This document shows positions 32,368-58,559 of a DNA stretch of 64,000 nucleotides, in pieces; within the stretch, counting starts at the first letter, position 1; each line of letters begins with the position of its first letter. Under the pieces are notes generated by a model, which saw nothing but the letters and a program-made list of their open reading frames with translations, was not told the DNA's origin and ran no database searches. This DNA comes from Octopus vulgaris (Eukaryota). Position numbers and translations under genes: made by a program. The stretch covers positions 86,800,001 to 86,864,000 of the forward strand of contig OX597825.1 in NCBI GenBank assembly GCA_951406725.2, written 5' to 3'.

Positions 32368-32444
<77 letters not shown>

Positions 32445-32455
32445 TATATAGAAGG

Positions 32456-32506
32456 AGCTTCTACAGGACTAGAACTGTTTCATTCAAGAGAAATCTTCAG
32501 GAAGCT
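32456..32506 (-). ncRNA. Type I hammerhead ribozyme motif (mirror copy)
   Basis: Exact reverse complement of 32868..32918. Confidence 0.8.
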
Positions 32507-32867
32507 AGTTAACAAGAATTGTATTGGCATTTATACATTTAGGCAGGTTTAAAGGGGTGGTGGTGGGGGACTTTTTGGGGGTAGGCATAGCGCAAAAAAA
32601 TCATACTTGGGGGAGTGGTCAAGGAGTCAGTGGTAAATTAGATAGAAGAATAAATAAAAGAATAAAAAAAAAAAAGGAGAATAAAAAAAAAATATATATA
32701 GAAGAATAGAGTTTTAGGTAAATAAAATTTATCTAATTTACCACTGACTCCTTGACCACTCCCCCAAGTATGATTTTTTTGCGCTATGCCTACCCCCAAA
32801 AAGTCCCCCACCACCACCCCTTTAAACCTGCCTAAATGTATAAATGCCAATACAATTCTTGTTAACT

Positions 32868-32918
32868 AGCTTCCTGAAGATTTCTCTTGAATGAAACAGT
32901 TCTAGTCCTGTAGAAGCT
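32868..32918 (+). ncRNA. Type I hammerhead ribozyme motif
   Basis: AGCTTC-CTGAAGA-tTTC(tctt)GAAt-GAAA-CAG(ttctagtc)CTG-TA-GAAGCT: 6-bp stem I, canonical CUGANGA and GAAA, 4-bp stem III, GUA cleavage triplet. Confidence 0.8.
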
Positions 32919-33001
32919 CCTTCTATTTAATAAATTAATTTTACTCTGCTATGTATTGAGTACCTTATTTACTGTGGTTAACCCCGAATCAACCCGGGAC
33001 C

Positions 33002-33053
<52 letters not shown>

Positions 33054-54723: not shown

Positions 54724-54727
54724 TATT

Positions 54728-54771
<44 letters not shown>

Positions 54772-54800
54772 AAAAAAGGAGATGTCGAACACGAGTGGTG

Positions 54801-55307
54801 ATATATAAAAAAGGAAATGAAGAAAATGCTGACAAATAATTGAAGTAATTTAAGTAATTTAATTAGGTGAAAGTTCTTTTTACCGGTTGCGCATTTGTTA
54901 TGCTTATCAAAATATAAAAGAGAGATTAGAGTCTGTCTCTTATATGTGAAAAAAAGAGGCTCCAGAGTTGTTTGGGATTTGCTTGGTTTCGCGCCTAAAA
55001 TTTTGATTGGTCATTATGAAGGGGTCACGTGAATGTTTGAATGGAAGTTGGTGTTGGGGTAAGAAAAAAGGCTCCAGAGAAGTTAAAATTTGGCTAGTGT
55101 CCCGCCTAAAATTTCTTATTGGCCATAATAAAGAGGTCACGTGAATGTTTAGAATTTTCGAAAATAGTGTTGTTGAAAATTCTTATTGTTCAGGCTGGTC
55201 AGTAGACGTCATGTGGATATTTTAAATAGCTTTTTAGCGCGTAGTTAGGGAGTGTATTTTCCGCTTGACTGGATAATTAAGTTCGTTTAGAACAGGGAGA
55301 GCTGTAT
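54801..55307 (-). repeat. 3' pseudo-LTR of the PLE (inverted repeat arm 1)
   Basis: Reverse complement of 57947..58453. The ORF track gives an identical 66-aa translation at 54940..55140(-) and 58114..58314(+). Confidence 0.93.
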
Positions 55308-55633: not shown

Positions 55634-57781
55634 TTAGGGGCATGTGTTTAGAAGTGGTCTGTATTTATTAATAAGGTGGGATTCCATGGTTATTCGCTGG
55701 GTATGAGTGGCATTGTCTTTAAATTTGTAGAGGGGAAAGATTCTAAAATTGGGATGGAGTTGTGCGGCACAGGTATCAATATGTGCACTAAATTCTATTT
55801 TTCTATATTCCTGTATTTTTATTTGGGATCTGTGGACAGTCATGCGTTGGCGGAGGCTATTTTTTGTTTGGCCTATGTAGTGTTCATTACAGCCCGAGCA
55901 AGTTAAGACATATACTAGGTTTTCTGATGCGCATGTGAAGTTGTGTTTTACTGTGAAACGTTGTCCTTGTTTAAAAAGGAATTCCGGACCTTCTATTAGG
56001 TTGATGCATATACCACAGTTGGGTCTATTGCATTTGTTTACTGTGGGTTTAGTTGTTGTGGTTGGCAGTACTTTGGCATTTGTTAGGATGGTTTTCAATG
56101 ATTTGGGTTGCCTTTTGCTCTTTATGATTTCGTGTGTTAGGAGGATTTGGTTCATTCTATGGTCCTTTTGTAATACAGGAATGTTCTGGAGGATGGTGTC
56201 AAAAGCTTCATTGTTGAGGGGGTTGTGTGTAGAGATGTATGGTAGAGTATGGGGTTTCGATGTAACAGGTTTAGGGCATCTAAGTTCCTGCGTGCTGAGT
56301 TTTAGGGCGCGTTGGATCCCATTGTCAATTAGTGACGTGGGGTAATCCCTGCTTGTTAATGTGCCCTTGAGTTCTTGTAGACGTAAGAGACGGGTGTTTT
56401 TATTGGAGACTATAGTGCAAATTCTCTTGGCTAAGTTGTAGGGAATGTTAATTTTAACGTGTCTAGGGTGGCATGAATTGAAAGGGAGGTATTGCTTGGA
56501 GTCTGTGGGCTTGTAGTATATGTCTGTTTCTATTTTTTTGTTGTGAATTTTAATGAGGATGTCGAGGAAGGGAATTTGTTGAGGGCTGTATTCCATTGTG
56601 AAAATAATGTTTGTGTTGAGCCCATTTATAAGAGTGTGAAATTCGTTAAGCTTCTCGACGGTTTCGGGCCAAAGGATGAAGCAGTCATCAAGATATCTCT
56701 TCCAGTTCTTCTCTATGTGTGTGTGGAGAGTGGTGCCAAATTGGTTAAGAACGTTATTATAGAGGGTGATTTCCAGGTATCCCATGACTAAGTTGGCGTA
56801 AGTGGGAGCTGTTTTCGTTCCCATTGCCGTCCCTGATTTCTGTCTGTAGAATTTGTTGTTGAAGGTGAAGAAATTATTCTCTAAGATGAATTTGAGTCCT
56901 TCTAAAATAAATTCCTTTTTGATGCGGTGTGGGAGTTCGTTGGAGTAATTATCCAGCCAGAATTGGATAGCTTCTATTCCTAGGTTGTGGGGGATGTTGG
57001 AGTAAAGATTGACTACATCGAATGTTACTAGCAGGGTTTGTTCAGCAAGAAGTGTATTGGGGAGGTGGTTGAGCATATCTAGATCGTCCCTTATGTAGCT
57101 TTTAATGTGTTTGAGGAACGGCTTGAGAAGGGTATCAATGAAGTTGCTAAGGCGGTGGGTTTCGCAAGCGGGACCTGCTATTATAGGTCTCAATTTGAGG
57201 TCATTTGGTGAGGGGACATTGATTACAGAGTTTGTGGCTTCCTTGCATGCCTTACTTATTAATTCGCTTTTATGAATTTTGGGAATACCGTAGAAGAGGC
57301 TGGTTTTACTAGTGAAATTTGTGATGAAGTTGAATTCTTTGTTAGTGAGTTCTTCTTTGTGGGGGTTGATCAGGGTTTTTAAGTTTCTCATAATTTTCTG
57401 TTGATTGTAGTGTTCAGCCTTTTCGTAATATGTTCCATTTTCCAAGGTGGAGAGTGCTAAGTTGATATAGTATTCTGTCTCCATTAAGACTACTGCACTT
57501 CCTTTATCGGCCTCTTTAATGGTGATAGATCTTTCATTTTTTAATTTGTTTAATTCTTCCCACTCTTTCTTGTTGAGGTTTGGTTTGGGTTTTGGTTTGT
57601 GTAAGTGTTGGTAGGGGAAGTTTGTAATGTGCTCACAGAATTCGTCTAGGATTTTATTTCTACCTTTTCGTGGGGTGTAGTTGCTTTTATTTCTAGCTAG
57701 TGACTCATCCTCTTTGTGCTGGTCGAATAGTTCCTCACTAAGTCGCAATTTTCTACAAAATTCTGTAATGTCTTCCTTCAT
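55634..57781 (-). CDS. PLE polyprotein: reverse transcriptase + Cys-rich linker + GIY-YIG endonuclease (probably Neptune-type), N-terminus frameshifted and truncated
   Basis: 715-aa ORF with PLE motifs IKEADKGSAVV, FYGIPKIHK, LRPIIAG, TFDVVNLYSNIP, GTAMGTKTAPTYANL, RYLDD, FLDI, SCHP, CNRPNCGIC and NLVYVLTCSGCNEHYIGQT...RMTVH. The upstream motif LLSKGLKFTPTP lies in another frame at about 57800..57840. Confidence 0.95.
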   Translation of the reverse strand: MKEDITEFCRKLRLSEELFDQHKEDESLARNKSNYTPRKGRNKILDEFCEHITNFPYQHLHKPKPKPNLNKKEWEELNKLKNERSITIKEADKGSAVVLMETEYYINLALSTLENGTYYEKAEHYNQQKIMRNLKTLINPHKEELTNKEFNFITNFTSKTSLFYGIPKIHKSELISKACKEATNSVINVPSPNDLKLRPIIAGPACETHRLSNFIDTLLKPFLKHIKSYIRDDLDMLNHLPNTLLAEQTLLVTFDVVNLYSNIPHNLGIEAIQFWLDNYSNELPHRIKKEFILEGLKFILENNFFTFNNKFYRQKSGTAMGTKTAPTYANLVMGYLEITLYNNVLNQFGTTLHTHIEKNWKRYLDDCFILWPETVEKLNEFHTLINGLNTNIIFTMEYSPQQIPFLDILIKIHNKKIETDIYYKPTDSKQYLPFNSCHPRHVKINIPYNLAKRICTIVSNKNTRLLRLQELKGTLTSRDYPTSLIDNGIQRALKLSTQELRCPKPVTSKPHTLPYISTHNPLNNEAFDTILQNIPVLQKDHRMNQILLTHEIIKSKRQPKSLKTILTNAKVLPTTTTKPTVNKCNRPNCGICINLIEGPEFLFKQGQRFTVKHNFTCASENLVYVLTCSGCNEHYIGQTKNSLRQRMTVHRSQIKIQEYRKIEFSAHIDTCAAQLHPNFRIFPLYKFKDNATHTQRITMESHLINKYRPLLNTCP

Positions 57782-58103
57782 TTCGTAGTAGTTTGGACGT
57801 GGGGGTTGGTGTGAATTTCAGACCTTTGGAGAGTAAGTTGAGAAGGTTGGGGTTGGGTTCTGTATTGGTTAAATTGATGACTTTAATTAGTTTATGTTTC
57901 TCTTCCCTGTCCTGTGTTATTTTGTTTGCCTGTATCTGTGTGCTGTATACAGCTCTCCCTGTTCTAAACGAACTTAATTATCCAGTCAAGCGGAAAATAC
58001 ACTCCCTAACTACGCGCTAAAAAGCTATTTAAAATATCCACATGACGTCTACTGACCAGCCTGAACAATAAGAATTTTCAACAACACTATTTTCGAAAAT
58101 TCT

Positions 58104-58316
58104 AAACATTCACGTGACCTCTTTATTATGGCCAATAAGAAATTTTAGGCGGGACACTAGCCAAATTTTAACTTCTCTGGAGCCTTTTTTCTTACCCCAA
58201 CACCAACTTCCATTCAAACATTCACGTGACCCCTTCATAATGACCAATCAAAATTTTAGGCGCGAAACCAAGCAAATCCCAAACAACTCTGGAGCCTCTT
58301 TTTTTCACATATAAGA
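58104..58316 (+). promoter_or_regulatory. Duplicated promoter-like module in the pLTR (E-box, CCAAT, E2F-like, then TATA-like)
   Basis: Two diverged units with a 112-bp period. TCACGTGAC at 58110 and 58222, CCAAT at 58132 and 58244, TTTAGGCGGG / GGCGCGAAA, and TATAAGA at 58310. Confidence 0.45.
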
Positions 58317-58332
58317 GACAGACTCTAATCTC

Positions 58333-58379
58333 TCTTTTATATTTTGATAAGCATAACAAATGCGCAACCGGTAAAAAGA
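58333..58379 (+). ncRNA. Variant minimal hammerhead-like motif in the pLTR (mirror copy at 54875..54921, minus)
   Basis: tctttt..TTGATAA-GCAT(aacaa)ATGC-GCAA-CCGG-TA-aaaaga has type I HHR order, a perfect 4-bp stem II and a palindromic ACCGGT stem III. The core deviates (U3/A8, C13). Confidence 0.5.
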
Positions 58380-58439
58380 ACTTTCACCTAATTAAATTAC
58401 TTAAATTACTTCAATTATTTGTCAGCATTTTCTTCATTT

Positions 58440-58559
<120 letters not shown>

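Follow-up and report, generated by a model that had tools for sequence, protein, structure and literature searches.

A hammerhead-bearing foldback in the Octopus vulgaris genome, probably formed by two-ended priming of a Hydra-clade Penelope-like element

The 64-kb stretch of the Octopus vulgaris genome analysed here (hereafter the window) contains a short foldback whose inverted arms each carry a type I hammerhead motif, which raises the question of what kind of element it represents and how its mirror-image structure arose. The initial annotation took it for a very young, protein-less and retrozyme-like derivative of a Penelope-like element (PLE). Comparison with related loci of the same genome indicates that it is a short two-armed stub without an ORF, inserted from the hammerhead-carrying end of an abundant coding PLE (Table 1).

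The arms, 32439-32644 and 32730-32935, are 206 nt long each and are separated by 85 nt. Their sole mismatch, T32927 in the right arm against A32447 in the left arm, leaves the 197 perfect base pairs that had been described before. T32927 is private to the right arm, an A being present in the left arm and in the short-read contigs of 4/4 runs, and it is either a post-insertion mutation or an assembly error. The reported one-sided tail (32936-33003) and the (AT)n sequence on both sides were likewise recovered. The length of the 85-bp spacer was given correctly, but the spacer is not a separate part of the element: most of it (32645-32725) is the reverse complement of the sequence that normally lies upstream in the element. 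Since this relation to the window spacer is seen in related loci, the left arm reaches 81 nt further than the right arm, and the 5' ends of the two arms lie at -81 and +1 relative to the 274-nt unit formed by the long-end arm.

Table 1. Features of the foldback and its flanks (positions in the window)
Feature	Position	Strand	Basis
Left (TA)n target tract	32370..32438		Sequence
Short-end arm, inverted; begins 81 nt before the 274-nt unit and ends at unit position 206; includes the so-called spacer	32439..32725	-	Sequence comparison
Mirror type I hammerhead motif	32456..32506	-	Descriptor scan
Putative left-arm TATA box, at a distance of 29 nt from the putative start at 32506	32529..32535	-	Sequence; promoter function putative
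Head-to-head arm junction, 4 nt, without clear template	32726..32729		Sequence
Long-end arm, 274 nt; pLTR and tail of a PLE matching the Hydra clade	32730..33003	+	Sequence comparison
TATA box, exactly 29 nt before A32868	32839..32845	+	Offset of 29 in 76/76 family copies
Putative capped transcription start; first base of hammerhead stem I and 5' end hot spot of the family	32868	+	Family junctions
Type I hammerhead motif, predicted cut after A32912; activity putative	32868..32918	+	Scan; layout like Hydra hammerheads
Fixed short 3' end of the family; putative first RT start site	32935	+	Recurrent arm ends
One-sided tail of 68 nt, bounded by the short and the long fixed 3' end; the latter, at 33003, is the putative second RT start site	32936..33003	+	Recurrent arm ends
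Right (AT)n target tract	33004..33050		Sequence

The parent element and its assignment to the Hydra clade

A genome search with 32730-33003 identified 40 other places at 99-100% identity (40 of 1,254 candidates scored), which agrees with the young age proposed earlier. Extension of 20 of these loci revealed a long microsatellite-rich 3' UTR, and parts of an ORF with RT and GIY-YIG domains were present in 5/20. One locus (L046) shows the order (TA)n, short inverted arm, truncated ORF, long 3' UTR, pLTR, tail and (TA)n. When the 5' part of the ORF was used as an anchor, the 274-nt unit or its 3' part was found directly upstream in 23/30 loci, which confirms the suspected origin from a PLE. Another locus (L182) carries the pLTR before and after the ORF, and two full copies possess an intact RT/GIY-YIG ORF of 713 aa, whose ATG lies 47 nt after the end of the unit; the copies linked to an RT-GIY-YIG ORF, for which the initial annotation had proposed to search, therefore exist. 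As in EN+ PLEs, the family combines pLTRs at both ends, an inverted 5'-truncated copy and a one-sided tail with a single ORF for a PLE-type RT and GIY-YIG domain that is linked to the repeat. The view of a protein-less retrozyme-like element had to be abandoned, since the 274 nt are the pLTR and tail of an autonomous PLE with intact ORFs and lack a head-to-tail tandem layout.

The 713-aa protein shows the DD motif of the RT core and the YIG half of GIY-YIG. A Pfam search with this protein yielded no RT or GIY-YIG match; its homologues carry PF00078/PF01541. The search for related proteins returned 1,118 database entries, the best of which are 37-52% identical. The motifs RWR (a conservative variant of RWK), DKT, CxCX5C, CxxC and CxH were found, CCHH is missing, and a GFK stretch is present, GxKF/Y being absent. 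The motif criteria for the Hydra clade were taken from section 11 of PMC8557442, and the protein agrees with them in its RWK-type motif, the lack of conservation of GxKF/Y, the change from DKG to DKT, the CxCX5C linker without CCHH, and CxxC and CxH around a conserved E and N, as read from the protein. It can also be lined up by eye with the Hydra proteins in the supplement of PMC8557442. Furthermore, the family shares insertion into (TA)n, a canonical hammerhead near the 3' end and a File S2-like layout with this clade. The parent element thus matches a Hydra-clade PLE, judged from motifs and by-eye comparison.

According to the sections and supplement of Craig et al. 2021 (PMC8557442) that deal with the Hydra clade, its members, such as Penelope-13_HM and Hydra-1_Obim, resemble the octopus family in having a single ORF with RT and C-terminal GIY-YIG and the motifs RW(K/R), DKT, CxCX5C, CxxC and CxH, without CCHH, as well as (TA)n targets and a hammerhead in which stem II has an unpaired U.U at its base. 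The octopus family differs from what is described there in its size of ~4.8 kb with a ~2.6-kb microsatellite-rich 3' UTR, compared with <3 kb, in its tail of 68 nt instead of 30-40, in its hammerhead loop III of 8 nt instead of 1-3, and in its thousands of copies, which are mostly two-armed stubs. A size generally below 3 kb is a typical rather than a defining trait of the clade, and the octopus unit exceeds it because of its long microsatellite 3' UTR. The hammerheads of the octopus family and of Hydra-1_Obim, as given in the supplement of PMC8557442, are different; together with the identity of only 37-52% to the nearest proteins, this argues for a distinct family.

The 3' UTR is 2.6-3 kb long in L046 and L182 and is dominated by (TA)n, (TG)n and (TATG)n tracts, and some copies contain further insertions of the family inside their own 3' UTR. 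Due to this composition, the family spreads microsatellites, including its own target sequence.

The window contains a second PLE on the minus strand, whose 727-aa open frame (55634-57817) encodes RVT_1 and GIY-YIG and is flanked by inverted pLTRs of 584 bp (~54724-55307 and ~57947-58526, 96% identity). Its DKG motif and a zinc-finger-like linker suggest that it belongs to the Neptune type, and a descriptor scan found no hammerhead motif in it. In line with the initial annotation, the foldback and this PLE belong to different families: there is no DNA match between them, and the 713-aa protein aligns only weakly, with 23% identity, to the Pfam-confirmed protein of the second element. An unrelated open frame of 805 aa with LINE-type likeness by eye lies beside one family copy (L033:1641-4055, oriented).

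Copy number, fixed ends and the 5' hot spot

Exact matches in the genome numbered 6,251 for the ribozyme core, 4,317 for the tail and 7,247 for the sequence that immediately follows the cleavage site, with 0 matches for each control, so that the copy number, a point raised by the initial annotation, is that of a large family. The architecture of insertions was studied around 94 of the 100 core matches that head the list and lie in the first 32 Mb of contig C1; the use of exact-match patterns under-counts old or diverged copies. Neighbouring arms at a distance of <10 kb were treated as belonging together, which may be incorrect for at least one pair (L146/L147). The sample comprises 112 arms in 61 insertions, 51 of which are two-armed, with (TA)n as the target.

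The 3' ends of the arms fall into two classes: 57/112 end at unit position 274 (33003), 47/112 at 204-210 (32935) and 8 elsewhere. The two fixed ends account for 104/112 arms, and a short end is paired with a long end in 45/61 insertions. At the 5' side, 67/112 arms begin at unit position 138-150 and 26/112 run beyond the start of the unit, and either arm may be the longer one, depending on the insertion. In 38/61 insertions, both arms start at unit position 120 or later; these are referred to as minis. The two arms of an insertion agree in their subfamily markers in 178/182 comparisons, which fits one template as well as two.

Since the first sample required an intact core, 30 further arms were sampled with the tail as an anchor, which is blind to the ribozyme. 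In this sample, 13/30 start at position 139 (14 by alignment, one of which is a diverged subfamily that runs on), and 5/30 start downstream of 141. Truncation at the ribozyme cleavage site was considered as a source of the 5' ends and rejected, as it was found in 0/30 arms of the tail-anchored sample and in 0/30 in a second count. Perfect foldback junctions at the equivalent of 32868 occur 706 times in the genome (control: 0). Short-read contigs from four studies contain loose ends at 32868 in 4/4 runs and, among the matches listed, at 32935 in 3/4 runs.

A TATA box precedes the 5' hot spot by exactly 29 nt in 76/76 continuous copies that contain a TATA-like word at -34 to -18, although the intervening sequence differs between subfamilies; because such a word was the condition for inclusion, the information lies in the exact offset alone. 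Directly before the hot spot, the template has T in 73/76 copies, C in 3/76 and G in none. Nevertheless, a G stands between (TA)n and the equivalent of 32868 at 39/66 single-arm junctions and in both main subfamilies; with respect to the (TA) register, it is present in 35/47 junctions of one register and in 4/19 of the other, in which it is not enriched. For L1, an extra G at full-length 5' junctions is attributed to copying of the mRNA cap in the part of PMC11702581 that deals with such junctions. The non-templated G and the TATA box at -29 together suggest that 32868 is a capped transcription start. With such a start, the ribozyme would form the first 51 nt of the mRNA and would normally be passed by the RT uncut.

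Changes at unit positions 180-192 were found in 22/78 arms of minis, compared with 1/31 longer arms, and mostly affect one arm only; one form of this change has 204 matches in the genome. Among these, one-arm deletions just past the predicted cut, at unit positions 184-187 (window 32913-32916), were seen for instance in L118, L131 and L133. No such deletion was listed for the short-read contigs at 3% or 1%. The deletions may be a sequencing artefact of the hairpin or a scar left by the RT when it crosses the ribozyme. Another insertion (L181, G000:C1:151333750-151333894) contains three head-to-tail repeats of 60 bp, each of which is a tiny foldback of the 3' half of the ribozyme; this is repeated template switching.

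Two-ended priming and alternative explanations

Judged from these sequence patterns, the foldback was probably made by two-ended priming of a Hydra-clade PLE, the cDNAs of which were then likely joined head to head. The RT-endonuclease of the element would cut both strands of a (TA)n tract, and each of the two DNA ends would prime a cDNA at its own fixed site on the RNA, one end at the short site and the other at the long site, 68 nt away. Transcription from the TATA promoter would begin with the first hammerhead base (32868) and yield a capped mRNA, and the RT would read through the uncleaved ribozyme. If priming takes place near the 5' end of the mRNA, both cDNAs would run off at the cap, thereby producing a promoter-less foldback of ~200 bp, the commonest product; priming on the 3' pLTR would result in longer arms with variable stops, as in the window copy. 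Finally, the two cDNAs would be joined at their 3' ends by a microhomology of 0-4 nt or by a few added bases. The window copy is most likely a dead-end product, which keeps two outward-facing putative promoters. On a wider reading, for which we see slightly more in favour than against, the family is a genomic record of the PLE cycle, with a capped mRNA that starts exactly at the hammerhead, a dimeric RT-endonuclease, two-site priming, passage through the uncut ribozyme, copying of the cap and fused run-off cDNAs; inverted pLTRs and the tail would then be the default outcome and the double-hammerhead hairpins by-products.

The origin of the inverted ends and tails of PLEs is described as still undefined in the relevant part of PMC8557442, and one published proposal for the inverted ends is antisense self-priming (PMC3846280), the discussion of rotifer Penelope elements in that paper reading head-to-head palindromes as self-priming on an antisense template. 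Applied to the octopus family, one cDNA or an antisense template of the same element would snap back at a short palindromic sequence and be copied, and a 4-nt palindrome or stalling of the RT at the folded ribozyme, rather than the 5' end of the RNA, would account for the 5' hot spot. The commonest junction, which was found at 706 sites, does overlap at a 4-nt palindrome with which stem I begins (24/55 junctions), and the near-constant agreement of subfamily markers between the arms of an insertion also speaks for self-priming. However, self-priming explains neither the non-templated G at 39/66 single-arm junctions nor the TATA box at -29, and it leaves very unequal arms, including those of the window copy, without explanation: as either arm can be the longer one, this inequality is not given by a simple snap-back. 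We therefore regard self-priming as a rather doubtful alternative to two-ended priming.

It is very improbable that the foldback belongs to a protein-less, retrozyme-like family of its own, which spreads via self-cleaved or circular RNA. ORF-less foldbacks are indeed the majority product (38/61 insertions), and a preprint (10.64898/2026.07.22.740005) derives animal retrozymes from pLTRs, as far as its available text goes. In addition, one short-read contig (run X2) joins the ribozyme end 32926 back to 32868 with 4 letters in between, which is a possible junction of a ribozyme-sized tandem or circle. However, this sequence serves as the pLTR of an autonomous coding element with intact ORFs, and the junctions vary between insertions, as expected for independent truncations. 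The head-to-tail tandems of non-LTR retrozymes were not found either: among the 100 core matches listed, there were 2 same-strand neighbours at <10 kb and no short head-to-tail ribozyme arrays. Moreover, the minis lack the TATA box, and their predicted hairpin would mask the ribozyme.

Finally, although tandem and inverted structures of PLEs are known to disturb assemblies, as noted in PMC8557442, an assembly or sequencing artefact is unlikely, and for the inversion at this locus extremely so, since the arms differ at one base, their ends follow the rules of 45/61 insertions and of short-read contigs from four studies, and the assembly is chromosome-scale (2.8 Gb in 227 contigs).

Hammerhead motifs, predicted RNAs and related systems

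In each arm, the hammerhead consists of a 6-bp stem I, CUGAAGA, a stem II of U.U and 3 bp, GAAA, and a 4-bp stem III with an 8-nt loop, followed by GUA. A descriptor scan of the 64-kb window, which covered the conserved core and stems I-III of type I hammerheads, matched only the sites in the two arms and gave 0 matches in 20 shuffles, so that the motif is present in both arms as described. Stem II had been called weak: its U.U base and 3 bp were confirmed, but the U.U is usual in hammerheads of the Hydra clade, as seen in File S2 of PMC8557442. A comparison with Rfam, suggested as a check by the initial annotation, did not return a hammerhead, neither among 150 of 251 matches listed nor among the 3 matches of a second search.

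The monomer does not fold better than shuffled sequences (z 0.13 to 0.31), and the ribozyme fold is not its minimum (-7.3 vs -8.5 kcal/mol). Across the genomic copies compared, which are too alike, no compensatory changes in the stems were seen; the changes between subfamilies are located at N7, loop II and loop III. When two molecules are co-folded, the minimum (-28.0 and -30.4 kcal/mol) is a textbook dimeric hammerhead, whose stem III forms between the molecules. This fold was rejected as evidence for a ribozyme, since shuffled loops were equally good in 123/315 and 67/351 cases. A hairpin of 6 bp at 32911-32925 overlaps the 3' strand of stem I and competes with the ribozyme fold; in the folding model, it could act as an off-state of the ribozyme. 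Judged from the motif, the hammerheads of the foldback are putative self-cleaving ribozymes.

A transcript of the whole foldback is predicted to form a hairpin with a duplex of 206 bp (-398 kcal/mol), which corresponds to the dsRNA of about 200 bp that was anticipated by the initial annotation, and the family thus places a few thousand potential long RNA hairpins into an animal genome. The accompanying idea that the foldback would self-cleave whichever strand is transcribed is unlikely to hold for read-through RNA: a read-through transcript of either strand makes the antisense arm first, and the ribozyme would therefore be hidden in the predicted 206-bp duplex. Transcripts from the putative promoter of each arm would run outward and lack the antisense arm, so only these could self-cleave.

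Several of these features have precedents. PMC8557442 and PMC3846280 describe the one-sided tail and the inverted, 5'-truncated copy as standard features of PLEs. According to the supplement of PMC8557442, stem II has a U.U at its base in most families of Hydra magnipapillata, and Penelope-13_HM is represented by a 5'-truncated inverted copy with a hammerhead on both strands. Opposite-strand hammerheads at a distance of 100-700 bp have also been reported for the Cercyon PLEs of Schistosoma and ascribed to truncated PLEs (Cervera and de la Pena 2014, PMC4209133); in contrast to the octopus motifs, these are minimal hammerheads without a real stem III, and the available text of that study does not offer a mechanism. 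Publications on PLEs therefore already cover inverted 5' copies and tails as well as mirror-image hammerheads and a stem II with U.U at its base. The foldback also resembles the metazoan non-LTR retrozymes described in PMC7229834 in being short, protein-less at the locus and equipped with a type I hammerhead, and HHR_Amex2 of axolotl shares the U.U at the base of stem II, cleaving weakly as a monomer and better as a dimer according to the same source. Retrozymes, however, are arranged as head-to-tail tandems (PMC7229834 and, in its available text, the preprint 10.64898/2026.07.22.740005) and give rise to circular RNA (PMC7229834), whereas the octopus foldback is arranged head-to-head and belongs to an autonomous element.

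Two systems are closer in mechanism. For the PLE Poseidon_Ac (PAc), Frangieh et al. 2024 (PMC11167929) reported that RT starts at two sites bounding the tail, that both strands are cut and extended, that the targets are AT-rich and that uncleaved hammerhead RNA serves as the template. PAc belongs to another clade than the octopus family, its ORF starts inside the hammerhead, and in the available text of that report the two sites are not connected to opposite sides of the break, inverted arms or run-off at a cap. In twin priming of L1, as presented in the part of PMC11702581 on this process, the opposite side of the break likewise primes a second cDNA, which is joined through microhomology, and an extra G is found at full-length 5' ends. 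The second primer of L1 anneals inside the RNA, which leads to an inversion with little overlap; in the octopus family, unlike L1, both cDNAs would start from fixed sites and copy the same stretch, which makes an inverted duplication the usual product. What is new is thus the family-level pattern of fixed paired ends, a 5' stop at the first base of the ribozyme and an extra G, and this pattern favours twin priming on uncleaved capped sense RNA. Among the Penelope papers covered, which are an incomplete selection of the literature, no title or abstract start describes a two-ended priming model.

Taken by itself, the locus is an ordinary PLE stub, and the interest lies at the level of the family. 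The thousands of young copies lead to base-precise predictions for the start site, the two RT starts, two-ended priming and the uncleaved template, and the intact ORFs allow testing of the mechanistic predictions for this family. Apart from this family, other hammerhead-like motifs with different stems are present in the genome (43 pattern matches compared with 4 in the control, e.g. L082 and L102), which probably derive from other PLE families.
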